Source of the DNA: Phycisphaerae bacterium
GTDB lineage: Bacteria; Planctomycetota; Phycisphaerae; Phycisphaerales; UBA5793
Assembly (NCBI GenBank): GCA_039794345.1
Contig: JBDIVQ010000005.1
Location: 2,132-66,131 of the forward strand
Length of the DNA: 64,000 nt
Reading direction: 5' to 3'
Notes under the pieces: model-generated
The model's input: only the letters and a program-made list of their open reading frames with translations
Told to the model about the DNA's origin: nothing
The model's database searches: none
Program-made: the position numbers and the translations under genes
Shown: in pieces, positions 4,449 to 61,500 of the stretch
How positions within the stretch are numbered: position 1 is the first letter of the stretch
Layout: each line of letters begins with the position of its first letter

Positions 4449-4804
4449 CGGACCGCCTCCGTCGCGGCTGTCTCCAGCGCGCGATCAGGCAGCACCGCGG
4501 AGGCCGGCAGTTCGACGAGGTAACACTCGCTCAGCAGCAGCGGCACCAGCCGTTCACCGGTTTCCCGCTCGAGGGCGGAGGCGAGGGCGGCGACGCGATC
4601 CTGGCGGAGTCGCTCGTGAATCGCCACGCGCAGGCGCCAGGAGCGCTCCTCGTGCTGGAGGAGCCGCCGATGGGTGACCGACATCTGGTACGCCGCTTCA
4701 ATGCGCTGCTGGCGGATGACCAGCAGGCCGCACGACGTAGCGCCGGCGATGAGGACACAGACCGCGACCTTGGGAACGAGCGCCATATCCCACTTCATCG
4801 ACAC
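4445..4804 (-). CDS. FtsL-like cell-division membrane protein (small bitopic, coiled-coil)
   Basis: 119 aa with a single N-terminal TM (VAVCVLIAGATSCGLLVI) followed by a Arg/Glu-rich helical region. It sits immediately upstream of ftsI with an ATGA overlap. The assignment rests on architecture and position, not on a sequence motif. Confidence 0.55.
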   Translation of the reverse strand: MSMKWDMALVPKVAVCVLIAGATSCGLLVIRQQRIEAAYQMSVTHRRLLQHEERSWRLRVAIHERLRQDRVAALASALERETGERLVPLLLSECYLVELPASAVLPDRALETAATEAVR

Positions 4805-4881
4805 TCGACTTGAGCCGCGATGAATCGCGTCACGGCCCCGCGAGGCGTCAGCGCGTGCCCCCCTTCACGGGAAAGGTCGTC

Positions 4882-5766
4882 CTAGCGCACCGGGATGCGG
4901 ATCGTCTTTCCGATGGGCAGCACATCGGGGTTTCGGATAATGTCGCGGTTGAGCGCCACGATCTCGTGCCAGCGCCCTCCCTTGCCGAGGTGTTTCTTCG
5001 CCAGATCCCAGAGGCGATCGTCTTCACGGATCGTGTAGTCAATCGTCTTGATCGCAGTGCTTCTGGCCGGCGGGGCTTGCGCGGCAGGGGCGGTCGGCGT
5101 GTGGCCCGGGGGCGCGGTTCGTCCGCCCGTCAGCACGTCTTTCTGCGGCAGGATGATCGTCATGCCTGGAAGCAGCCGACTGGTCGGGGGAATGACGTCG
5201 GCATTGTGGCTGAGCAGCGCTTCGTAGAGTGAGCCATCGCCGTAGAACCTGCGGCAGAGGCCGTACAACGTATCGCCGTCGCGGACGACGTACCGCTCGC
5301 CCGACGCACGGCCGGCCGAAGACTCAGGAAGGACCGGCGTGGGGCCGGGGCCCATGATGATCGGCTCCGCCTGGCTCTCCCCGGAGTTCACATGCTGCTC
5401 ATACTCGGAGGCCTGACCGGTTCGCAGATCAAGGTCCGGGCCGGCAGAGCCGCCGGCGGGGGGAGGTGCAGTTCCGGCTCCCCCCTCGACCGTGGGCTGC
5501 ATCGCCCCCTGCGGCGGCTCAAAGAGCGTGATCTCCCGGTTGGCGGGCGCGTCGAAGGAAGTCGCCGCCGCCGACTCGCCGAACTGTCGGCGATACTGGT
5601 CGCCCATGCCCGAGGGCAGTTGGACGAGCGGACTGGGGGACGACGTCTCCTCGAGGCGCGCCAACTCGCCCTGCTGGGCAGGAGAGAGATGGTCGGCGAG
5701 CAGGATGGCCACGACCAGCAGAAGGCTGAATCCGACGATGAGTGCCAGTTTGTTTTCGCGTGTCAT
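4882..5766 (-). CDS. membrane-anchored protein with two C-terminal LysM peptidoglycan-binding domains
   Basis: N-terminal TM (LALIVGFSLLLVVAILLA), then a low-complexity linker. Two LysM-like units follow: YVVRDGDTLYGLCRRFYGDG...GMTIILP and YTIREDDRLWDLAKKHLGKGGRWHEIVALN...GKTIRIP. Confidence 0.8.
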   Translation of the reverse strand: MTRENKLALIVGFSLLLVVAILLADHLSPAQQGELARLEETSSPSPLVQLPSGMGDQYRRQFGESAAATSFDAPANREITLFEPPQGAMQPTVEGGAGTAPPPAGGSAGPDLDLRTGQASEYEQHVNSGESQAEPIIMGPGPTPVLPESSAGRASGERYVVRDGDTLYGLCRRFYGDGSLYEALLSHNADVIPPTSRLLPGMTIILPQKDVLTGGRTAPPGHTPTAPAAQAPPARSTAIKTIDYTIREDDRLWDLAKKHLGKGGRWHEIVALNRDIIRNPDVLPIGKTIRIPVR

Positions 5767-32804: not shown

Positions 32805-33767
32805 ATGGTCGAGATGAGCATCATCTATGCCGCTTGCGTCGCCGGGGCGATCGGGCTGCTCTTTCTCCTGCCGCGGGGCGACCGGCGGTGGGCGCCGATC
32901 GGCGCGGTGCTCGGGGGCGGGGCGCTGGGGGCGGGGTTGCTCGCGCTGTCGCGAGGCCAGGCGGCGGGCGGCGGCGTTGATGTCTTCTTCTACGTCCTCG
33001 CCTTCCTCGCCGTCGGCGCCGCGGTCAGGATGATCACCCATCCCCGGCCCGTCTACGCGGCTCTCTACTTCATCCTCGTCGTCCTTGCCGTCGCGGGGCT
33101 CTTCGTGCAACTCGCGGCCGAGTTCATGGCCTTCGCCCTCATCATCGTCTACGCCGGCGCCATCCTCATCACCTACCTCTTCGTCATCATGCTTGCGCAG
33201 GAAGCGCCCGACGACCGGCATCCCGATGCGCTCACCGACTATGACGCCACGGCCCGCGAACCCGTCGCGGCGACGATCGTCGGCTTCGTCCTTCTCGCGG
33301 CGCTGCTCGGAATGATGTACCGCGGCACAAGCCAGATGCCGGCGCATGCTGCGACGCACCGTCCGGCCGATGCGGAACTGGCGATGCTCACCGGCAAGGT
33401 CGAGGCCGCCTTGCGCAAAGCGGACCTGATCCGGCCGGAAGAGACGATCCGGGAGGTCGATGCGGAGACCCGCACGGCTCTCGTCGCATCTCCTTCGGGC
33501 GACGGAGTCCGAACGGTGACGCTGCCCGTCGATCTTCGCGTGAGCAACGTCGATGCCGTCGGCGTTTCGCTCCTGAGCGAGTTTCCCGTGAGCCTCGAAG
33601 TGGCGGGGGTGATTCTGATGCTCGCCATGCTCGGCGCGGTCGTGCTGGCGCGGAAGGAGCGTCTTGATGCGCCCCGCGAATCGCAGAGCCTCATCGGAAA
33701 GGCGCCCCACGATTCGCAGACCCTCATCGTGGGCGTGGGGGCCAGCGCGGAGGGGGGCGCATCATGA
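32805..33767 (+). CDS. nuoJ: NADH-quinone oxidoreductase subunit J (unusually long, 320 aa)
   Basis: Part of ORF 32040..33767, starting at MVEMSIIYAACVAGAIGLLF. NuoJ helices are present (YFILVVLAVAGLFVQLAAEFMAFALIIVYAGAILITYLFVIML and the terminal EVAGVILMLAMLGAVVLA). It has an expanded TM4-TM5 loop and a repeat-derived C-terminal tail. Confidence 0.85.
   Translation: MVEMSIIYAACVAGAIGLLFLLPRGDRRWAPIGAVLGGGALGAGLLALSRGQAAGGGVDVFFYVLAFLAVGAAVRMITHPRPVYAALYFILVVLAVAGLFVQLAAEFMAFALIIVYAGAILITYLFVIMLAQEAPDDRHPDALTDYDATAREPVAATIVGFVLLAALLGMMYRGTSQMPAHAATHRPADAELAMLTGKVEAALRKADLIRPEETIREVDAETRTALVASPSGDGVRTVTLPVDLRVSNVDAVGVSLLSEFPVSLEVAGVILMLAMLGAVVLARKERLDAPRESQSLIGKAPHDSQTLIVGVGASAEGGAS
33672..33735 (+). 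repeat. tandem 33-nt repeat module forming the NuoJ C-terminal tail
   Basis: ccccgcgaatcgcagagcctcatcgg (33672..33697) and ccccacgattcgcagaccctcatcgtgggcg (33705..33735). They are translated APRESQSLIGK / APHDSQTLIVG. The second unit is 30/31 identical to the reverse complement of 58420..58450. Confidence 0.8.
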
Positions 33768-34084
33768 CCGACGCCCTCTCCGTCCTCGCGCTCAATCACT
33801 ACCTGCTGCTCAGCGCCGTGCTCTTTGTCATCGGCTTCATCGGCTTCCTCACGCGGCGCAACCTCATCATCATGTTCCTGTGCACGGAACTGATGTTCCA
33901 GGCGGCGGCGATCGCGATGATCGCCTTCGGCGCCCACCACGGCAACGTGCAGGGGCAGGTGTTTCTCATTTTCATTCTCACCATTGCGGCGGCGGAGGCG
34001 GCGCTGGCGCTGGCGCTGGTCGTCATGCTCTATCGCCGGCGGCCGACGCTCGATGCGGAGAAATGGTCGGAGTTGAAAGGCTGA
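33764..34084 (+). CDS. nuoK: NADH-quinone oxidoreductase subunit K
   Basis: 106 aa and three TM helices (LLLSAVLFVIGFIGFLTRRNLIIMFLCTELMFQAAA...AAAEAALALALV). The start overlaps the nuoJ stop. Confidence 0.92.
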   Translation: MTDALSVLALNHYLLLSAVLFVIGFIGFLTRRNLIIMFLCTELMFQAAAIAMIAFGAHHGNVQGQVFLIFILTIAAAEAALALALVVMLYRRRPTLDAEKWSELKG

Positions 34085-34088
34085 TGCC

Positions 34089-36131
34089 GTGATGACCAGC
34101 GCCCTGAGCGCCCATCTCGCTCTGCACGCTTCGCCGACGCTCGCGTCGGCGGCGGAAGCGGTGCGCCTCGGCGTGCCGGTCGAGTGGATTCCCTTCGCGC
34201 CGCTCCTGGCCGCGGTGCTGTGCGGCATTCTGGCCCTGCGCCCCGGCGACGCCCGCGCCCGCTATGCCGGCGCGATCTGCGTCGCCGGACTGGGCCTGGC
34301 CTTTCTGACTTCCGTCGCGGTCGCCGTCAGCATCGGCCACGGCACGGCCCAGGAGACGATCTTCGAGTGGATCCGCTTCGACCGCCTTCGCGCCGACTTC
34401 GCCTTCTTCCTCGATCCGCTCACAAGCATCATGCTTCTCGTCGTGACGGGCATCGGCACGCTCGTGGCGGTGTACGCCTCGGAGTACATGCGCGGCGACC
34501 GCGGCTATGCGCGATTCTTCGCCTTTGTCAGTCTCTTCATCACAGCGATGACGACGCTGGTGCTCGCCGACAACCTCATCCTCATGTACCTCGGATGGGA
34601 GGGGGTGGGGCTGTGCTCGTATCTGCTCATCGGGTTCTACTACGAGAAGCCCGCCGCCGTCGCCGCCGCCAAGAAGGCGTTCATCGTCAACCGCGTCGGC
34701 GACCTCGGCTTTGCGCTGGGCATCTGCCTGGCGTACGTGCAATTCGGCAGCGTCGAGTTCGCGGTGATCTTTGAGCAGGTCGAAGCGCTGCGGGCGTCGG
34801 GCGCTGAGATCTCGACGGCGATCCAGGCGATCCCCTTCCTGCTCATGCTCGGCGCGTTCGGCAAGAGCGCGCAACTGCCGCTGTACGTCTGGCTGCCGGA
34901 TGCGATGGAAGGCCCGACGCCGGTTTCGGCCCTTATCCACGCCGCGACGATGGTGACGGCGGGCGTCTATCTCATCGCCCGCACGCTGCCCCTGTTTCTG
35001 CTCAGCGAGTACGCCCTGCCGACGGTCGCGTGGGTGGGCTGCCTGACGGCGGTCTTCTCCGCGACCATCGGCATGGCGCAGTACGACATCAAGCGCATCT
35101 TCGCCTACTCGACCGTTTCGCAACTGGGCTACATGTTCATGGGGCTGGGGGTGCTCAGCAGCGTCGGCGCGACCTTTCACCTCTTTACCCACGCCTTTTT
35201 CAAGGCGGCGCTCTTCCTCGGCTGCGGCGCGGTGATGCACGGCTTTGCGGGGCAACTCGATCTGCGCCGCCTTTCGGGCCTTGGCCGCGTGCCGGGCTGG
35301 CAGATCGTGACGGGTTCGATGCTCGTGGCCTGCCTCGCGCTGGCCGGGTTTCCGCTCACCTCCGGGTTTTTCAGCAAGGACATGATTCTGGCCGAAGCGT
35401 TCGTCACGCCCGGGCCGGGATATCGCGCGATCGGCTGGATCGGGCTGCTGACGGCGGGGATGACGGCGTACTACACCTTCCGGGTCTTCTTCCGCGTCTT
35501 CCTCGGCCCGGTGCAGTATCACCCCGGCGAAGAGCATCACGGACACGACGATGCCCATCATTTTCACCCGCACGCGCCGGGGCCGGCGATCAACTTCGTG
35601 CTCATCGTGCTGGGCATCGGCGCGATCTTCGCCGGCTGGGTCGGCGTCGGCGGCGCGCATCATGGGTGGTTCGGCTCGATGATCCATCACTCGACGGCGG
35701 CGTACGAAGCGCCGGCCGGCGCAGCGCACGGCGGCTTTTTCAGCAACCCGCACCAGTGGATGATGCTCGCGTCGTCGATCGTCGGACTCGTGGGCATCGG
35801 TGTTGCCGCATATCTGCACCTGCTCAACAGGCCGATGGCCGAGCGCCTGCGCCGAGCGATCCTGCCGGTCGCGGTTCTTGCGGAGCACAAGTGGTGCGTG
35901 GATGAGGGCTATGACCTGCTCATCCGCCGTCCGCTGCGGTTCATCGGGCACGTCTGCTACGCGCTTGGCGACACGCTCATCATCAACGGGCTGGTCGCGC
36001 TGGGCGGGGCGGTCCCGCGACTCATTGGCGCCGCGGTGCGGCCGATGCAGAACGGCCGACTTCAGGGCTACGGCCTCGGAATGGCCGGCGGGCTGGCCAC
36101 CATCATCATCATCGTCTGGGTCATGCTGTGA
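34089..36131 (+). CDS. nuoL: NADH-quinone oxidoreductase subunit L
   Basis: 680 aa antiporter-like subunit (YLGWEGVGLCSYLLIGFYYEK, KSAQLPLYVWLPDAMEGPTPVSALIHAATMVTAG). Confidence 0.93.
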   Translation: MMTSALSAHLALHASPTLASAAEAVRLGVPVEWIPFAPLLAAVLCGILALRPGDARARYAGAICVAGLGLAFLTSVAVAVSIGHGTAQETIFEWIRFDRLRADFAFFLDPLTSIMLLVVTGIGTLVAVYASEYMRGDRGYARFFAFVSLFITAMTTLVLADNLILMYLGWEGVGLCSYLLIGFYYEKPAAVAAAKKAFIVNRVGDLGFALGICLAYVQFGSVEFAVIFEQVEALRASGAEISTAIQAIPFLLMLGAFGKSAQLPLYVWLPDAMEGPTPVSALIHAATMVTAGVYLIARTLPLFLLSEYALPTVAWVGCLTAVFSATIGMAQYDIKRIFAYSTVSQLGYMFMGLGVLSSVGATFHLFTHAFFKAALFLGCGAVMHGFAGQLDLRRLSGLGRVPGWQIVTGSMLVACLALAGFPLTSGFFSKDMILAEAFVTPGPGYRAIGWIGLLTAGMTAYYTFRVFFRVFLGPVQYHPGEEHHGHDDAHHFHPHAPGPAINFVLIVLGIGAIFAGWVGVGGAHHGWFGSMIHHSTAAYEAPAGAAHGGFFSNPHQWMMLASSIVGLVGIGVAAYLHLLNRPMAERLRRAILPVAVLAEHKWCVDEGYDLLIRRPLRFIGHVCYALGDTLIINGLVALGGAVPRLIGAAVRPMQNGRLQGYGLGMAGGLATIIIIVWVML

Positions 36132-36138
36132 GCTCATC

Positions 36139-36324
36139 AGAACCAACCACAGAGATTAAGAACCAACCACAGAGAACACAGAGGACACAGAGGATGAACA
36201 GAGTTGGATTGAGAGTCGAAGTCGAAGTCGAGGACATGATGTGAAGTCGAGTGAGGTTTCTGAGATTGAAATGAACTGCATTCCCCTCTGTGCGCCCTCA
36301 GTGTCCTCAGTGTTCTCTGTGGTT
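36139..36324. repeat. low-GC inverted-repeat (MITE-like or structured-RNA) element in the nuoL-nuoM spacer
   Basis: Arms: aaccacagagaacacagaggacacagagg (36165..36193) and cccctctgtgcgccctcagtgtcctcagtgttctctgtggtt (36283..36324). They are complementary at about 34 of 39 positions. There is also a perfect 17-nt tandem duplication agaaccaaccacagaga (36139..36155, 36159..36175) and agtcga micro-repeats in the centre. Confidence 0.75.
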
Positions 36325-36350
36325 GCATCTGTTTCGACGTTTGTAGAGCC

Positions 36351-37945: not shown

Positions 37946-39529
37946 ATGCTTGATCGCGTCGCGACACTCTGGCCCGAGATCATTCTCTTCGTCACCGTGA
38001 TGGTTCTGATGCTCACGGGCACGAGTGGAGACAAGGACATCCGCCGCGCCGGCTTGTGGATCGCCGGCGTCGGGCTGCTCCTGGCGTTCATCTTCGCGGT
38101 GCGCATGCCTGAGCCGGAGACGCTCATGCCGGGGCTGGCGGGCTTCATGCGGCCCGCAGCGTGCGTGGTGGGGTTCCTGCTTCTGATGGGTCTGGGCAAC
38201 ATTGACTCGCGGCTCGAATCGGAGGTGGACGGCGGGCGTCGCTTCGACCCCCTCGACACGACGCAGGGCGAGCAACTCTGCTTCTTTCTCCTCTCGCTCA
38301 TCGGCCTGATGCTCTGCACGACCGCGAGCGATCTCATCTGGCTCTTCCTCGCGCTGGAGATGACGAGCCTGCCGACGTACATCATGGTCGCGCGAAGCCG
38401 CTCGAAGAAGGCGTCGCAGGAAGCGGCGGTGAAGTATTTCTTCCTCGGGGCGGCGGCGGCGGCGATCTTTCTCTACGGCTTCGCCATGCTCTACGGCGCC
38501 ACCGGCTCGCTGCACCTGCTCGACATCCGCGCAGCGCTCGAAGCGCAGGCGGCGGCGGGGGGCATCGGTTCGCTGGCCATCCTCGGCCTGACGCTGGCGA
38601 TCATCGGCGTCTCCTTCAAGATCGCGGCGGTTCCCATGCACTTCTACACAGCCGATGTCTACGAAGGGGCGGCGGCGCCGGTCACGGCCTTTCTGGCCTT
38701 CGTGCCCAAGGCGGCGGGCTTCGTCGTCCTCATGCTCCTGCTCGGCACGGCCCTGCACCTCGGCGAGGGTGGGCAGGCGTGGCCCGAGGCGATTCGCGTC
38801 CTTCTCTGGGTGCTCGCGGCGCTCACCATGACCATCGGCAACGCCCTGGCGATGTGGCAGAACCGCATCAAGCGCATCCTCGCCTACTCCTCGATCGCGC
38901 ACAGCGGTTATATGCTCGTCGGCCTTGTCGCCGCGATGGAAACGGCCGGCTCGGCGAGCGCTTCTCCGGCGACCAACGGCTTCGCGGCGGTGCTCTTCTA
39001 CATCGTCGTCTACGGCATCACCAATCTCGGCGCGTTTCTCGTCCTTGCCTGCCTTGAGCGTCGCGGCGAGGAGATCGAGACCGTTGATGACCTCGAAGGA
39101 CTCTGGAGCCGCCACGCCGGGCATGCGACGATCCTCGCGCTGTGTACGCTCTCGCTCATGGGTCTGCCGCCGCTGGTCGGGTTTTTCGCGAAGTTGTTTC
39201 TCTTCACCTCGGCGATTCGCGCGGGTGAGTACGTGCTGGTGATCATCGCCGGGCTCAACAGCGCCGCCGCGGCGTGGTACTACCTGCGACTCGCGGGCGT
39301 GGGCTGGGTGCGCCGGCCGGGTTCGAGCGCCGGCGAGATCGAGCGCACGCCGGTCGTTGCGCGGCGCTTCGCGGCCGGGGTGTCCGCCGCGACGACGATC
39401 CTCCTGCTGGCGCTCACGGCGCGGCTCATCACCGCCGGCGATCAGGCGGTGCAGTTGCGCCCCTCCGACGCGCCGCCGCACCACGCCGCGCTGTCGACTC
39501 CCGCCGCGGATGATCGGCCGCAGCGCTAG
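37946..39529 (+). CDS. nuoN: NADH-quinone oxidoreductase subunit N
   Basis: 527 aa (LALEMTSLPTYIMV, FKIAAVPMHFYTADVYEGAAAPVTAFL, AYSSIAHSGYML). Confidence 0.92.
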   Translation: MLDRVATLWPEIILFVTVMVLMLTGTSGDKDIRRAGLWIAGVGLLLAFIFAVRMPEPETLMPGLAGFMRPAACVVGFLLLMGLGNIDSRLESEVDGGRRFDPLDTTQGEQLCFFLLSLIGLMLCTTASDLIWLFLALEMTSLPTYIMVARSRSKKASQEAAVKYFFLGAAAAAIFLYGFAMLYGATGSLHLLDIRAALEAQAAAGGIGSLAILGLTLAIIGVSFKIAAVPMHFYTADVYEGAAAPVTAFLAFVPKAAGFVVLMLLLGTALHLGEGGQAWPEAIRVLLWVLAALTMTIGNALAMWQNRIKRILAYSSIAHSGYMLVGLVAAMETAGSASASPATNGFAAVLFYIVVYGITNLGAFLVLACLERRGEEIETVDDLEGLWSRHAGHATILALCTLSLMGLPPLVGFFAKLFLFTSAIRAGEYVLVIIAGLNSAAAAWYYLRLAGVGWVRRPGSSAGEIERTPVVARRFAAGVSAATTILLLALTARLITAGDQAVQLRPSDAPPHHAALSTPAADDRPQR

Positions 39530-39694
39530 CGCGTGGGGTGGCATGGCGTCGCGCTTCGCGTCGCTATGCCCGGGCGTTCCCGCACGATCGATCGTCCCTG
39601 CGCGATCTGCATAGCCAGGCGAAGCACCAGGCCATGCCACCCATCACGCGCCCGCGATCGGCTCCGATCGAATCGCCGACCATACGATCTTCAC

Positions 39695-55639: not shown

Positions 55640-57121
55640 TCATGAGTCGAGACGTTCCCGCACCAGTTGGATGAAGCGCTGCCCGCGCTGCTCGAAGTTG
55701 GTGAACTGGTCCCAACTGGCGCAGCCGGGGCTGAGCAGGAGAATGTCGCCGGCCTCCATTCGCGCCATGGCGCTGCGGACCGCAACGTCCAGCGTGCGGC
55801 AGTGCAGGCACGTCCCCGTCGGCGCAAGGTCGTGGATCCGCTCGCCCACCGCGCCGATGGCGTAGAGTCGCGCGACGCGCTCGCCCAGCGCCGCCAGCGG
55901 CGCGAGATCCGCCTTCTTGTCGTACCCGCCGACGATGAGGTGCAGCCGCGCGGGATCATCGAAGGACTCGACCGCGAGCGCGGCAGCGGCGGGGGTGGTG
56001 CACTTGGAGTCGTTGTAGAAGCGCCGGCCGTCCTTCGTCTGCGCCACGAGTTCGAGTCGGTGGGGAAGGCCGCGGAAGTCCGCCAGCGCGGCGATTGATT
56101 CGTCAAATGGCACGCCAGCCGCACGGCATGCCTCAGCGGCCATGAGCGCATTGAGGCGATTGTGCCCGCCGGGGATGAGCAGGCTGATCCCCGCGAATCG
56201 CAGGTCGTCCGCGGCGATGTCAGTGCGCTCGACGCCTTCGCTGGTCGGCCAGTCGCGCAGGCCGGGGCCGAGGATCGCGTGATCACCGGGGTGCTGGTGC
56301 GCCAGCAGGTGCTGCTTGGAGGCGCGGTAGTGATCGAGCGAGCCATGCCAGTCGGCGTGGTTGTCGCTGAAGTTCGTGATGACGGCGACGTGGGGGGACC
56401 ATTTGTGGGTTTTGGTTAGCCGCGACGCGGAGGCTTTGCGCAGCGGAGCGCGGGCGTGCGACGTTGAAAAGTCACCCCCACCCCCGCCCTCCCCCGCAGA
56501 GCCGGGGGAGGGAGTGCCTTCGGTTAGCCGCGACGCGAAGGCTTTGCGCAGCGGAGCGCGGTCGTCCGCAGTCCCCGCGCCCCCCAGCCACCACAGCATC
56601 GCGCTGGACAACTCGAGCACGACCCACTCCTCCGCGCCGATCTCGACGCCGAGCAGCGAGCCGCCGATGTTGCCGCCGAGGTGCGCGGCGCCGCAGTGCG
56701 CCCGCAGGATGTGATGAATCATCGCGCTCGTTGTGGACTTGCCCGCCGTACCTGTCACGCCGATGATGCGATCGCGATCGGGCAGTGAATCGATGAGCAG
56801 TTCGATCTCCGTGGTGATCTCTGCGCCCGCCTCGCGTGCCGCGTTGAGGAACCGGTTCTCCCACGGCCGCGGCACCGCCGGATTCGCCACGACCAGGTCC
56901 GTCTCGCGGAAGTCGCGCTCCTCGTGCCCGCCGAGAACCAGCGTCACCTGTCCGGCATCAACCAAATCGCGCACGGATTCGAGCGAATCGGCGAGTTGAT
57001 CGGCAGAGGCGAGATCGGTCAGCAGCACGCGGCAGCCGCAGCGCTGCACGAGCCAGCGCGTTACTCCGACGCCGCCGCCGAAGTGCCCGAGGCCCATCAC
57101 GGTGACCCGCTGTTGCGTCAT
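55640..57121 (-). CDS. murD: UDP-N-acetylmuramoylalanine--D-glutamate ligase, carrying an in-frame repeat insertion
   Basis: VTVMGLGHFGGGVG Rossmann N-domain. GVTGTAGKSTT P-loop. VLELSS strand. ITNFSDNHADWHG. C-terminal YNDSKCTTP and LLLSPGCASWDQF. About 57 extra codons lie between VLELSS and AVITNF. Confidence 0.9.
   Translation of the reverse strand: MTQQRVTVMGLGHFGGGVGVTRWLVQRCGCRVLLTDLASADQLADSLESVRDLVDAGQVTLVLGGHEERDFRETDLVVANPAVPRPWENRFLNAAREAGAEITTEIELLIDSLPDRDRIIGVTGTAGKSTTSAMIHHILRAHCGAAHLGGNIGGSLLGVEIGAEEWVVLELSSAMLWWLGGAGTADDRAPLRKAFASRLTEGTPSPGSAGEGGGGGDFSTSHARAPLRKASASRLTKTHKWSPHVAVITNFSDNHADWHGSLDHYRASKQHLLAHQHPGDHAILGPGLRDWPTSEGVERTDIAADDLRFAGISLLIPGGHNRLNALMAAEACRAAGVPFDESIAALADFRGLPHRLELVAQTKDGRRFYNDSKCTTPAAAALAVESFDDPARLHLIVGGYDKKADLAPLAALGERVARLYAIGAVGERIHDLAPTGTCLHCRTLDVAVRSAMARMEAGDILLLSPGCASWDQFTNFEQRGQRFIQLVRERLDS
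56414..56561. repeat. direct-repeat pair with central hairpin embedded in frame in murD
   Basis: 40-nt units ggttagccgcgacgcg[g/a]aggctttgcgcagcggagcgcgg at 56414..56453 and 56522..56561 (39/40 identical, 108-nt period). A perfect 10-bp stem lies between them: ccctcccccg 56487..56496 / cgggggaggg 56503..56512. Confidence 0.85.
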
Positions 57122-58530
57122 GGCTGGCCGTAGCGGTGGCGGTATTTGCGGTCGAGCGCCTTCTGCTTGTTGTCGAGATCGACTTCCGCCCCGTCGATGT
57201 ATGCGGCGAGGACGTGGGTGGTGATTTCGAGCGGATCGCCGTCGGTGATGATGAGCGTGGCGTTCTTGCCGGTTTCGAGCGAGCCGAGCACCTTGCCCGC
57301 TCCGATGATTTCGGCGGCGCTGAGTGTGACGGCGCGCAGAGCGATCTCAGCGGGCAGGCCGTACGCCGCCGACTTCGCCGCGTGATAGGGCAGGCTGCGC
57401 TCGTGGGCCGGCTCTTCGCCGCTGGCGATGCAGAAGCGAATGCCCGCCTCGTGAAGCGCCAGCGGCAGCGTGAAAGGCTGGTCGTGCGCAAGGTCGCGGC
57501 GCGTCGGCATGCGGTGCGTGCCGACGACGATAACGGGAACGTCGTGAGCCTTGAGCAGGTCGAGGCACTGGTCCGCGTCGGCACCGCCGACGATCACCGC
57601 GCGCAGGTTCATGCGGTTGGCCCACGCGACGGCCGAACGGATCTGCGCCGCATCGCCCGCGTGAATGAAGACCGGCACGAGGCGGTCGATCGCCGGCAGC
57701 ATCGACTCGAGGCGCAGGTCAACGGGGAAGGTGGGATCGGCGCTGCGGGCGCGCTGATAGGCCCTGGCCTCCTCGAAGGCGCGGTCGATGCGGTCGAGAT
57801 TCTCTTTGCTGCGGCGGAGTTGCTCCTCTTCGCTCTCCTCGATCCACCACGCCGTGCGCGGCCGGACGTTGGGCCAGCGCACCACCAGCCCGGCGCGGTC
57901 GGCGATGGTGAGTTCTTCCGTCGTCCAGCCGTCGAGGCGGATCGTCGAGCAATAACCCGAGATTGTCCCTCCCTGCGGCACGACGAGGGCGGTGAGGATG
58001 CCGTTGGCGCGTGTGACGGGGATGAGCGCGCTGTCGGGGTTGACGGCGATGACGGCGCGGACCTCGGGCGTGATCGCGCCGGTTTCGCTCACGTCGATCG
58101 TGGCGCGGACGGCGCCGATCTCGCTCAGCCCCAGCGTCGTGTCGGCGCTGATCAGGCCGGGATAGACGTGCTTCCCCGCGGCGTCGATCACTTCCGTCTC
58201 GCCCGCGGCGGCGTAGGCGCCGGCGCCCACGTCGGTGATGATCCCGTCGCGGAAGACGATGTAGCCGCGCTCGATCGACTCGCTCGACACCGGGTGGATC
58301 GTCGCGTTGACGATGGCGATGGTCTTCTCCTGCGGCTGCCCGGGGATCTGGATCGACTGGGCGTGCGCCGATGCCACGAGGCACAGCGCCGCCGACACAG
58401 CGAGAAGCACTGAGGCGGACGCCCACGATGAGGCTCTGCGAATCGTGGGGTGCTCTCCGCGAATCGCAGCGAGCCTTCGCTCCCCTGCGCAGAGCCTTCG
58501 GGTCGCGGCTAAACAGGTCATCAGGTTCAT
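57118..58530 (-). CDS. amidohydrolase-family protein (secreted), metal-binding HxH motif apparently absent
   Basis: Part of ORF 57118..58824, starting at MNLMTCL (ATG after GGAGGAA). Signal-like ASASVLLAVSAALCLVASAHA. Amidohydrolase N-terminal pattern (IVNATIHPVS...GKHVYPGLISADTTLG), where ISAD replaces the usual xDxHxH. The stop overlaps the murD start (ATGA). Confidence 0.75.
   Translation of the reverse strand: MNLMTCLAATRRLCAGERRLAAIRGEHPTIRRASSWASASVLLAVSAALCLVASAHAQSIQIPGQPQEKTIAIVNATIHPVSSESIERGYIVFRDGIITDVGAGAYAAAGETEVIDAAGKHVYPGLISADTTLGLSEIGAVRATIDVSETGAITPEVRAVIAVNPDSALIPVTRANGILTALVVPQGGTISGYCSTIRLDGWTTEELTIADRAGLVVRWPNVRPRTAWWIEESEEEQLRRSKENLDRIDRAFEEARAYQRARSADPTFPVDLRLESMLPAIDRLVPVFIHAGDAAQIRSAVAWANRMNLRAVIVGGADADQCLDLLKAHDVPVIVVGTHRMPTRRDLAHDQPFTLPLALHEAGIRFCIASGEEPAHERSLPYHAAKSAAYGLPAEIALRAVTLSAAEIIGAGKVLGSLETGKNATLIITDGDPLEITTHVLAAYIDGAEVDLDNKQKALDRKYRHRYGQP
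58420..58514. repeat. composite of the murD-type and nuoJ-type repeat units inside the amidohydrolase 5' coding region
   Basis: The reverse complement of 58478..58514 matches the murD unit at 33/37. The reverse complement of 58420..58450 matches nuoJ 33705..33735 at 30/31. A partial extra unit (gcgaatcgcagcgagcc) lies between them. Confidence 0.8.
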
Positions 58531-61500
58531 TGGTGGTATTCCTCCATTCCGCAGCCGCACTCGCCCGGGCGCGAGGAGTGGGGGTCGTAGCCCATCTCGT
58601 AGCGGCGGCGCATCAGTTCCGCGAGAGCGCGGCGCTCGGGGGGGATGTCGCCCTCCTCGGCCGGCTCGGCAGGCTTCTCCTCCTCCGCCTTCTTCCGGTC
58701 CTTTTCCGGGTCCTTGAGGTTCTTTCTGAGGACCTTCTGAATGAGGCGCTGGCGCTCCGCCTTTGCCGCCTGCTGCATCGCGAGGTCGCTCTCGATGCTG
58801 AACATCTGCCGCCCCTCGATCCACGTCTGTTCGCAGCGGGCGAGCGTGCTCAGCGGCGAGGCGGACCAGATGACGAAGTCCGCGTCCTTGCCGACCTCGA
58901 TCGAGCCGACGCGGTCGTCGATCGCCAGTTGCCTCGCGGGATTGATGGTGACGAACTTGAGGGCCTCGGCGGGATCGACGCCGCCGTAGCGCACCGCCTT
59001 GGCCGCCTCGGTGTTCATGCGGCGGGCGAGTTCATCGGAGTCGGAATTGAAACTGACGACGACTCCCGCGTTGTGCATGATCGCGCCGGCGTAGGGGATG
59101 GCGTCGTAGACCTCAAACTTGTAGGCCCACCAGTCGCTGAAGGCCGACCCGCCCACGCCGTGTGCGGCCATCTCGCTGGCGACCTTGTAGCCCTCGAGAA
59201 TGTGCTGGAACGTGCCCAGCGTGAAGCCGAACTCGTCCGCGACGCGAATGAGCATGAGAATCTCATCCTGCCGGTAGGAGTGGCAGTGGACGAGGCGCTC
59301 GCCGGCGAGGATTTCGGCGAGTGTTTCGAGTTCGAGGTCGCGGCGCGGGGGATACTGGCGCTTCGTCGTCGCCTCGCCCGTGTTGTAGCGCTGCCAGGCT
59401 TCGGCGTAGTCCCGCGCCGCGAGAAAGGCACTGCGGATGAGCGTCTCGACGCCCATGCGCGACTGCGGGTAGCGCGTCGTGAAGTTGTCGCCCCAGTTGG
59501 CCTGCTTGACGTTCTCGCCTAGCGCGAACTTGATGCCGCCCTTGGCGCCCTCGAAGCGGAATTGCTCCGGCCCGAGTCCCCAGCGGATCTTCACGACGGA
59601 GTTCTGCCCGCCGATCGGGTTCGCCGAGCCGTGCAATTGGTTTGCGGCGGTGAGGCCCCCCGCGAGCTGGCGGTACCAGTTGATGTCATCGGGGTCGATG
59701 GCGTCGTTGATGCGCACTTCGGCCGTGATCGCCTGCGTGCCCTCGTTGATGCTGCCGCGGTCAATGCCGGTGTGCGAGTGACAGTCGATCAGGCCCGGCG
59801 TGAGGTGCTTGCCCGTCGCGTCAATGATGAGCGCGCCGGAGGGGGCGGCGAGGCTGCGGCCGATCTGCGCAATCTTCCCGCTCTGCACCAGCACATCGGT
59901 CTGTTCGAGGATGCCCGCCTCGGCGCTCGTCCAGACGGTGGCGTTGCGGACGAGCACGGCCTCGGGCTGGTCGCGCGGCTCGATGAGGCCGAACGCGCCC
60001 AGAGGCGTGGGATACTGCGCCGGTGCCGGCTCGTAAGGCTCCTCATCCGGCTTCTTCGCGTCTTTCGGCTCGTCATCCTGTGCTCCCGGCGCGTCAGCGG
60101 CTTGCTTCGCTTCGTCGGCATCCTCCTCGGCGCCGTCGTCGGCCTCCTCGGCCTCGATTTCTTGTGCGTCCTCCGCCCCATCGTCGTCGTCGTCGCTTTC
60201 AGCGGCGGCGTCGGGTTCTTCCGGCTTGCGCACGGCCGACCAGTCGAGTTCCTGCCCGTCGGCGGTTCGGATGATGCCGCGCATCGCATCGCCTTCGACG
60301 ACGCTGGTGTACTGCTCCCACGCGCCGCGGCCGTGCAGGTGGCCCGGGAGGACGAAACTGAGTCGCTCGACGCGCCACGAGACGGCCTTGGCCTTGGTCT
60401 TCGTCTCGCCGATCGCCGCCTCGACCTCCGGCGATTCGGGCTTGCCGGTGATGATGAGGTCGAAGGTCGCGCCTCCTTCGCCGCCGAGCGTCGCCGCCCA
60501 GGTTCCCTGTGGTTTGACGGGGGGGACGGGCTTGAGTTCAATGCGTTCGCCGTTCACCCACAATGCGGTGACGGTGCGGTCTTCGCCGAAGATCTCACCA
60601 GTTCCCTCGATGACGGCGAGGTGGGCGATCATGCCCTGCTCGAGGCTCCCCACCACCTTGTCGAGTGCGAGGATCTTCGCGGGTGTGGTGGTGAGGGCCG
60701 CGAGCGCCTGCTCTTCCGTCAGCCCCTCCTTGATCGCCATTCGCAGATTGTCGAGGAACTTGTCGCGCTGGCGCAGAGAGGCGGTGGTGAGGGCGACCGT
60801 CGCCCCGCCCTCGATGAGGCGGCGGGGGTTGGTCGGCGCCTGCTCCCAGTGCATGAGGGTGAGGAGATCGACGCTGTCGGCGTCCTCGATCGCCTCGATC
60901 TTCGGCGGGCCGGGGAAATTGATCGGCAGGATGACGGGAAGGTTGGTTTCGAGGACTTCGCCGAGGCGTTGATACTCCTGCCCGCTGCCGAGCGCGTAGA
61001 GGTTGAGGTTGAACTCATCGCGCAGCCTCGCCGCGCGGAGCAGGTCGAGTTCATCGCTGGTGTTGAAGAGGACGGGATGCGGCGGGGTGCGCACGACGCC
61101 GCGAAGCGCCGCCAGCGAGTCGTTGGGCACGGGCGGCTCGAGGTGCATGGGGTTGAGGCGGTAGATGTCCATGCAGTGGGCGTACCAGTCGGCGTCGATG
61201 AACGTCTGCCGCACCAGCGCAACGGCGCCGATGAGCGAGCCGGGATACCCCTCGCTGCGCCAACCGCCCGTTTCAAACTGGACGACCTGCGCGCCGCGCG
61301 GCTGGTGGACGATCATCTCCGCCCCGTCGGCGACGAGGGCGATGGTCGCCGCCTGCCCGCGGAAGATGCCCGAGTCGGGGACGATCTGTGCGGCCGTGAA
61401 GCCGATCTTGTGCAGCGACTCGATCACGCTGCGCTCGATCGGGGCCGCATTGAGGGCGCTGAACTCGGCGCGGACCTTGCTGTTCCAGTGCAGTCCGGGC

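Follow-up and report, generated by a model that had tools for sequence, protein, structure and literature searches.

A REP-like palindromic repeat in the reading frame of nuoJ at the nuoJ-nuoK junction of a Phycisphaerales genome

The nuoJ tail and the nuoJ-nuoK junction

The window analyzed here, that is, the whole stretch of DNA under study, covers 64 kb of a Phycisphaerales (Planctomycetota) contig with 67% G+C. Its nuo operon encodes membrane subunits of respiratory complex I, among them NuoJ and NuoK, and the element in question is a short repeat that is found twice in tandem in the 3' end of nuoJ and a third time at a distant site of the window. The repeat belongs to a dispersed family of imperfect palindromes that behave like repetitive extragenic palindromes (REPs), and in nuoJ it is part of the open reading frame (ORF). 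The features concerned are the following.

32805..33767, + strand: nuoJ coding sequence, 320 aa with the REP-derived tail included; ORF, with Pfam Oxidored_q3 over aa 73-281
33669..33701, + strand: unit 1, a decayed REP copy; 5' arm variant CCCGCGAA and loop TCGCAGAGCCTC kept, GAAAG linker in place of the 3' arm; encodes APRESQSLIGK
33702..33737, + strand: unit 2, a complete 36-nt REP hairpin; stem CCCACGAT/ATCGTGGG, 12-nt loop, GCGC/CGTG extension; encodes APHDSQTLIVGV
33738..33763, + strand: non-repeat Gly/Ala end of the nuoJ tail, read from the sequence; contains the nuoK Shine-Dalgarno GGAGG at 33749-33753
33764..33767, + strand: ATGA overlap; nuoK ATG at 33764-33766, nuoJ TGA at 33765-33767
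33764..34084, + strand: nuoK coding sequence, 106 aa; Pfam Oxidored_q2
33665..33675 (TGATGCGCCCC) and 33754-33764 (GGGGCGCATCA): 11-bp perfect inverted repeat that brackets both nuoJ units
58418..58453, - strand: third REP copy, a complete hairpin and, of the window copies, the one nearest the family consensus; lies between two amidohydrolase genes

After the last helix of NuoJ (...LMLAMLGAVVLARKE), the ORF runs on for 35 more codons, reading RLD-APRESQSLIGK-APHDSQTLIVG-VGASAEGGAS, with no in-frame stop before the ATGA. The Pfam Oxidored_q3 match stops at aa 281, ahead of this tail, and the protein deposited at NCBI (P0001) is identical to our translation, tail included, over its 320 aa. The unit peptides predicted for the C-terminus are APRESQSLIGK and APHDSQTLIVGVGASAEGGAS. 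An initial annotation of the window had described two tandem 33-nt units within a NuoJ tail of about 35 codons that ends at the nuoK overlap, and had suggested that the module was absorbed into the upstream reading frame. The coordinates, the ORF and the ATGA all proved correct, and absorption into the frame agrees with the stop-free tail, with the deposited protein and with the copy-number differences described below. It had also placed the nuoK start within the module, which has to be corrected: the repeat ends at 33737, and both the Shine-Dalgarno sequence and the ATG lie in the non-repeat Gly/Ala end, which is alignable to a relative with a single unit (L062; L numbers designate related loci). 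The nuoK start is thus located in unique sequence, 27 nt downstream of the module.

Both units begin on codon boundaries and are identical to each other at 25/33 positions, counting the 33-nt part of unit 2 (33702-33734). Their tandem nature rests on direct comparison and on core-motif matches; Tandem Repeats Finder (minimum score 30) left the pair unreported, since a duplication of 76% identity stays under its threshold. The 20-nt core CGATTCGCAGAGCCTCATCG occurs three times in the window at ≤3 mismatches, against a shuffle mean of 0.02 and with 0/100 shuffles reaching three, and unit 1 deviates from it by one mismatch. Unit 2, which agrees with the family consensus given below, folds into a hairpin of -24.6 kcal/mol as RNA (z -2.4) and -9.0 kcal/mol as DNA (z -3.1), while unit 1 alone forms no stable hairpin because its 3' arm is lost. 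The units are direct tandem copies and not an inverted doublet; they abut directly or with a linker of ≤5 nt and have no unique spacers, so the arrangement is not that of a CRISPR array. The inverted recurrence of the second unit some 25 kb away, likewise noticed at the outset, was recovered at 58421-58453 (- strand) with 31/33 identical positions, extending to 33/35 (33702-33736 versus 58419-58453).

The 4-nt overlap of the nuoJ stop and the nuoK start is kept in 13/13 junctions compared, namely the window and 12 relatives (ATGA in 12, GTGA in one), and it is present both with and without a REP unit. This supports the earlier suggestion that translational coupling was preserved.

Upstream of the tail, the NuoJ body (32805-33660) shows two peculiarities that are common to the clade: an N-terminal extension of ∼60 residues relative to solved NuoJ/Nqo10 chains, and an insert of ∼55 residues between conserved helices 3 and 4 (query 176-231 versus chain 112-114).

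A dispersed hairpin family with transposase-like genes in relatives

The pattern CCNCGANTCGCAGANCCTCATCG was scanned over 185,579 species-representative genomes, which yielded 73 matches at 58 loci. The matches fall in the Phycisphaerales metagenome-assembled genome (MAG) JAPKGW01 (37), in WYBR01 (28) and in two other Planctomycetota MAGs (2 each), the remaining four being stemless matches in unrelated genomes, roughly as many as chance would give. The title of WYBR01 names Vicinamibacteraceae (Acidobacteriota), but its nuo operon shares 87% identity with that of the window and it has the REP family in common with JAPKGW01; this label is probably wrong.

A consensus built from 77 copies with ≤2 mismatches to a 28-nt core reads (R)(R)A-N-GCAY-CCCACGAT-TCGCAGAGCCTC-ATCGTGGG-CGTG. 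Conservation spans ∼36-40 nt and is at background level beyond. The element forms a hairpin in which an 8-bp stem, lengthened by a further 3 bp with one bulge, carries a 12-nt loop, or one of 18 nt in a minor variant; as DNA, the consensus folds at -9.1 kcal/mol (z -2.7). Of the 77 copies, 58 have CGTG as their 3' tag and 8 have CGTC. Covariation of the stem over the copies was uninformative because they are nearly identical. As regards the hallmarks of miniature inverted-repeat transposable elements, the element is one hairpin and not a cargo bounded by terminal inverted repeats, and for want of an empty site no target-site duplication could be read. Most copies are not traversed by a coding frame, the proportions of intergenic and in-ORF copies being approximate as they come from local frame scoring, and their orientation is ∼3:1 sense relative to co-directional neighbouring genes. 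They stand singly, in direct arrays (period 38, 39 or 58-60 nt between genes, 33 or 39 nt within ORFs) or as inverted doublets.

Inverted doublets, composed of an 18-nt-loop copy on the + strand, an 18-nt spacer and a 12-nt-loop copy on the - strand, occur in L018, L012, L030 and L031, and in three genomes they surround a transposase-like gene. In L018, a gene for a protein of 186 aa (4928-5488) has the same doublet on both sides (4793-4872 and 5495-5574); the doublet folds as one long hairpin (-41.3 kcal/mol, z -11.3). A transposase gene with flanking doublets is likewise found in L012 and L031, which come from two other genomes. With the Pfam Y1_Tnp (IS200-like) model, these proteins score 29.7 bits (L018) and 22.3 and 37.9 bits (L012/L031) at a cut-off of 23, and their best NCBIfam model is 'REP-associated tyrosine transposase' (RAYT; REP_Tyr_transpos). 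The genes were found by phmmer using two query sequences, which are not evidence in themselves, and were then confirmed with Pfam and NCBIfam; a strict regular expression for the HUH motif found no transposase. Dispersal of the hairpin and its doublets around a Y1/RAYT-like gene support the initial proposal that the nuoJ repeat is a mobile module.

Stop codons are missing from all but one of the six frames of the element, and in relatives it was found in frame not only in the nuoJ tail but also at the following sites.

Second NuoJ paralogue (L003 5802-6455, L055 6835-7524): REP in the loop that precedes the last helix; one unit in L003, two in L055
CstA: REP forms the last 11 codons; cstA neighbours the gene of the second NuoJ paralogue
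PheT: REP directly before the B3_4 domain; 2-3 units with a 39-nt period
Glycosyltransferase-like protein: REP in a different frame (TPRFAEPHRGR), 1-2 units
395-aa protein: REP in the tail, 3 units, 33-nt period

The second NuoJ paralogue is shorter (189 aa from the first Met in L003), and its REP is read in the same frame as in the nuoJ tail. Pfam domains are intact around the in-frame inserts.

The window also contains a second repeat family, termed B, one copy of which adjoins the distal copy of the REP family (A).

58478..58512, - strand: family B copy, adjoining the distal REP and forming a mosaic cluster with it

The succession of B and then A recurs side by side at 58418-58512 of the window and in L001, L008, L021 and L057. 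The whole distal cluster (58398-58536, - strand) comprises B, a partial A and a full A, with the stop of an amidohydrolase gene (58527) on one side and the next gene's signal-peptide core on the other. An in-frame ATG at ∼58530 makes an ATGA overlap with the amidohydrolase stop and, if used, would turn the entire cluster into an N-terminal extension (...HPTIRRASSWASASVLLAVSA...). Family B is dispersed in relatives too. In the window, it is met again in murD (55640-57121, - strand), whose product, compared with E. coli MurD, has ∼60 extra residues after LELSSAML and before PHVAVITNF (window 56405-56580). This insert consists of two in-frame family B copies (TTAGCCGCGACGCGAAGGCTTTGCGCAGCGGAGCG at 56416 and 56524) with a 108-nt period, and it also holds a hairpin with a 10-bp stem (CCCTCCCCCG/CGGGGGAGGG, 56487-56512). 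A second RAYT-like gene (L015 60-772, L044 395-1106; HVH and YVQENP motifs; 23.0 bits with Y1_Tnp and 48 bits with REP_Tyr_transpos) stands between two family B elements that are inverted relative to each other. Both repeat families of the window therefore have their own transposase-like gene in relatives.

Two further repeat-bearing sites lie downstream in the nuo operon. The nuoL-nuoM gap (36132-36350) is an AT-richer spacer with a 45-nt inverted repeat (36159-36203 / 36286-36330) of CACAGAGGA 9-mers and with GAACCAACCACAGAGA as a direct repeat. When the region is aligned with its orthologue in WYBR01, the alignment is interrupted precisely over this gap, which therefore looks like a further lineage-specific insert. 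Behind the nuoN ORF (37946-39529), a 41-nt inverted repeat (39529-39649; 80% complementary, arms 39 nt apart) starts at the nuoN stop and could be a terminator or another repeat element.

Variation of the tail among relatives and its explanation

The NuoJ tails of relatives were collected from a protein search and from the DNA of twelve related junctions, and were compared after the invariant ...GAVVLARK.

4 units: L016; ERLD-(APHDSQSLIGN)x3-APHDSQSLIVG-VGGERS
3 units: L059; flanks 99.5-99.8% identical to L016
2 units: the window, L045 and L065; first unit 27 nt in L045 and L065
1 unit: L060, L062, L063 and L064
No consensus unit: L061, L066, L067 and L068; KPA...GKAGSP

The comparison of junctions across related genomes that the initial annotation had suggested thus gave a unit count ranging from none recognisable to four, together with many other genomic copies, so that the uniform tail named there as a refutation is not what is seen. 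All copy-number differences among relatives are in frame, and with its 33-nt period and with four versus three units in L016 and L059 between near-identical flanks, the tail is a coding variable-number tandem repeat. In the inner units of the arrays a 5-nt linker (GGAAC or GAAAG) replaces the 3' arm, hence the 33-nt period, and only the last unit keeps the full hairpin, both of its stem arms being present in every unit-bearing tail. The stem in L062 shows a paired A:T to G:C change (CCCGCGAA...ATCGCGGG). As for the tails without a consensus unit, the genome of L061 (CAUJHZ01) holds the REP family elsewhere (L031), and the L066 tail reads CACGGATTCGC...GAGCCTCACGGGAAAG, compared with CGCGAATCGCAGAGCCTCATCGGAAAG in unit 1 of the window; this is no more than suggestive, but some of these tails (L066, L067, L068) may contain a decayed unit.

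Small in-frame duplications of another kind are seen in the tail of L063 (1461-1549), which has a 15-nt GATSA repeat and a 12-nt VDAG repeat. The NuoJ tail is a general hot spot for such duplications.

The history of the tail was examined with a neighbour-joining tree built on the NuoJ core, alongside which flank identities were compared. Tree and flank identities place L060, which has one perfect unit, nearest to L067, which lacks a consensus unit. Identity between them is 89% in the last 600 nt of nuoJ and 93% in nuoK, but their tails are unalignable, and whole-tail alleles must therefore have been swapped or replaced; the KERLD...GASS flanks of the L060 tail are common to clade I. We rejected the idea that one ancestral insertion defines a clade, as the one-unit tails of L060 and L063 fall among tails without a consensus unit. 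The history of the tail therefore comprises allele replacement, recombination or re-insertion and not just one local insertion, and the conserved sequences of transmembrane helix 5 and nuoK are obvious recombination arms.

The best explanation of the locus, to which we assign a probability of about 0.8, is that a REP of the RAYT-linked type has settled in the unconstrained nuoJ tail, is read there as protein and expands and contracts in frame by 33 nt, leaving the coupled junction untouched. Such a REP would be a small, imperfectly palindromic element of a type disseminated by the Y1 (RAYT) transposases, which act on single-stranded DNA. One copy, presumably arriving by transposition, would have landed in the 3' end of nuoJ, after the last transmembrane helix and before the conserved ribosome-binding site and the ATGA. 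It would simply have been read through, because five of the six frames are free of stops and the tail after helix 5 is unconstrained, and each unit would add 11 residues (APHDSQSLIVG) to NuoJ. Amplification and contraction in 33-nt steps, probably by slippage or unequal recombination and with loss of the 3' stem arm from the inner units, would then have produced the relatives' tails of one to four units as well as the two units of the window, of which the older has decayed. The overlap of the nuoJ stop and nuoK start would have stayed undisturbed throughout, and the tail itself may well be selectively neutral.

Several observations weigh against this account. No RAYT gene lies within the 64-kb window, the linkage being seen in relatives, and the RAYT-like proteins score 36-48 bits, under the NCBIfam curated cut-off of 80 bits. 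The GTAG tag is absent among the 77 REP copies, and RAYT cleavage in E. coli needs that tag. Only three family copies are seen in the window's own genome, within 64 kb. A comparison of orthologous sites between the two related genomes, which proved too diverged there, yielded neither a clean empty site nor a target-site duplication, and two empty-site candidates turned out to be diverged intergenic regions, not clean insertions. The tail alleles are not congruent with the flank phylogeny. Translation of the tail is predicted from the ORF. Finally, of the independent in-ORF sites, 5/6 use one frame and 6/6 are in sense orientation, a bias that could hint at more than neutral tolerance.

The same bias may point to the possibility that the units have been co-opted, either as an RNA hairpin whose copy number tunes the coupling or stoichiometry of the complex I membrane subunits, or as a preferred peptide cassette (APHDSQSLIVG), which two NuoJ paralogues carry. 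If this were true, the lineage would repeatedly install the cassette in loops and tails of membrane and housekeeping proteins; we consider it unlikely. A related and similarly doubtful proposal is that the hairpin was exapted as an RNA element of the nuo operon, stabilising the upstream mRNA or occluding the nuoK ribosome-binding site. The hairpin would then act 12-30 nt upstream of the nuoK start, and nuoK would be translated only by ribosomes that finish nuoJ. Retention of both stem arms by the terminal unit of all unit-bearing tails, the paired stem change in L062 and the mostly sense orientation of the REPs are in line with exaptation, as is the 11-bp inverted repeat of the window. This inverted repeat pairs the start of unit 1 with the spacer between the nuoK Shine-Dalgarno sequence and the ATG, which its 3' arm spans, and it is part of the minimum-free-energy fold of 33661-33767 (-56.7 kcal/mol, z -2.9). 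The inverted repeat is seen in the window only, however, and is probably incidental because it is not conserved in relatives. Moreover, the same REP sequence is present at >60 unrelated sites, so that it is no nuo-specific signal, close relatives without a consensus unit have the same junction, and the family is too uniform to provide covariation evidence. An Rfam scan and a promoter/terminator scan of 33300-34200 gave nothing relevant and no terminator-like site.

An ordinary low-complexity protein repeat made by local slippage, with the distant copies being coincidental or derived from a coding motif, would account for a period that is a multiple of 3, for the variable copy number and for the other small in-frame duplications of the L063 tail (GATSA, VDAG). 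Slippage, however, explains how many copies there are and not where the unit came from: the family is mostly intergenic, occupies both strands and forms hairpins, in-ORF copies are read in at least two frames, and doublets flank a transposase gene, all of which makes this origin very improbable. Even less credence is due to an assembly or binning artefact in which repeat-induced chimeric joins put the repeat at the nuoJ-nuoK junction. All sequences are from MAGs or metagenome contigs, and the Vicinamibacteraceae label of one MAG is inconsistent with its content. Yet ten independent assemblies (NCBI, ENA, JGI, Logan) have the unit at the same codon position with intact nuoJ and nuoK flanks, and the arrays are ≤132 nt, under typical read length.

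If a RAYT-linked-type REP did enter the nuoJ tail as proposed, the locus offers a clean, datable example of a selfish palindromic repeat turning into protein in a core respiratory gene, with none (or a decayed relic), 1, 2, 3 or 4 units at one orthologous codon position in close relatives and the overlap intact. In practical terms, REP units inflate and diversify the predicted proteins of MAGs, here NuoJ and, through related repeats, PheT, CstA and MurD, and they can mislead domain annotation, start-site calls and strain typing.

Comparison with known systems

The family resembles the REP/REPIN-RAYT systems of Pseudomonas and E. coli, from which the REPtron/REPIN architecture is known (PMC3116915, PMC3337134). 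Both comprise an imperfect palindrome of ∼36 nt in tens of dispersed, near-identical and mostly intergenic copies, which occur as singlets, tandem clusters and inverted doublets folding into long hairpins, with doublets around a single Y1_Tnp gene. The present family differs in its CGTG 3' tag and lack of GTAG, in its loop of 12 nt or 18 nt, in its Phycisphaerales host, in a transposase that is distant from curated RAYTs, and in the sizeable minority of copies inside ORFs. REPs within known genes were reported by Di Nocera, De Gregorio and Rocco 2013 (PMC3733652) as singles, dimers or clusters that encode 20-82 aa, also at COOH termini, where insertions were argued to be possibly harmless to function; the CGTC REPs of that study have 4-5-nt loops and no linked transposase. 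Our family fits none of its 24 GTAG or 4 CGTC families, and what sets the nuoJ case apart from them is that a single orthologous position clearly carries anything from no recognisable unit up to four. With no GTAG tag and a loop far longer than that of the CGTC families, the family is therefore REP-like in behaviour and stands outside the described GTAG/CGTC super-families.

Bacterial interspersed mosaic elements (BIMEs) of enterobacteria bind integration host factor and gyrase. The mosaics of B followed by A are like BIMEs in placing different motifs side by side, and are unrelated to them in sequence and host.

A further parallel is provided by the Rickettsia palindromic elements (RPEs), which Ogata and colleagues reportedly described in 2000 as 'selfish DNA in protein-coding genes'. 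As in the present case, a palindromic repeat is found in frame in many unrelated genes, including essential ones, and is read as additional peptide without the gene being destroyed. RPE-1 is longer (∼100-150 bp), AT-rich and of other sequence, and its host is an obligate intracellular alphaproteobacterium, whereas the element described here is 36 nt long and GC-rich. To our knowledge, RPEs do not form tandem in-frame arrays at operon junctions. RPEs are discussed in PMC3733652.

In-frame palindromic repeats are thus already established, both by the Rickettsia RPEs and by intragenic GTAG/CGTC REPs, and the nuoJ tail is an example of the phenomenon and not a new principle. New here are, in Phycisphaerales, a family of REPs that comes with a distant RAYT of its own and, where two genes of the complex I operon meet, a remarkably orderly series of copy numbers, which extend REP/RAYT-type systems and the invasion of reading frames to Phycisphaerales and to a family without the canonical GTAG tag.

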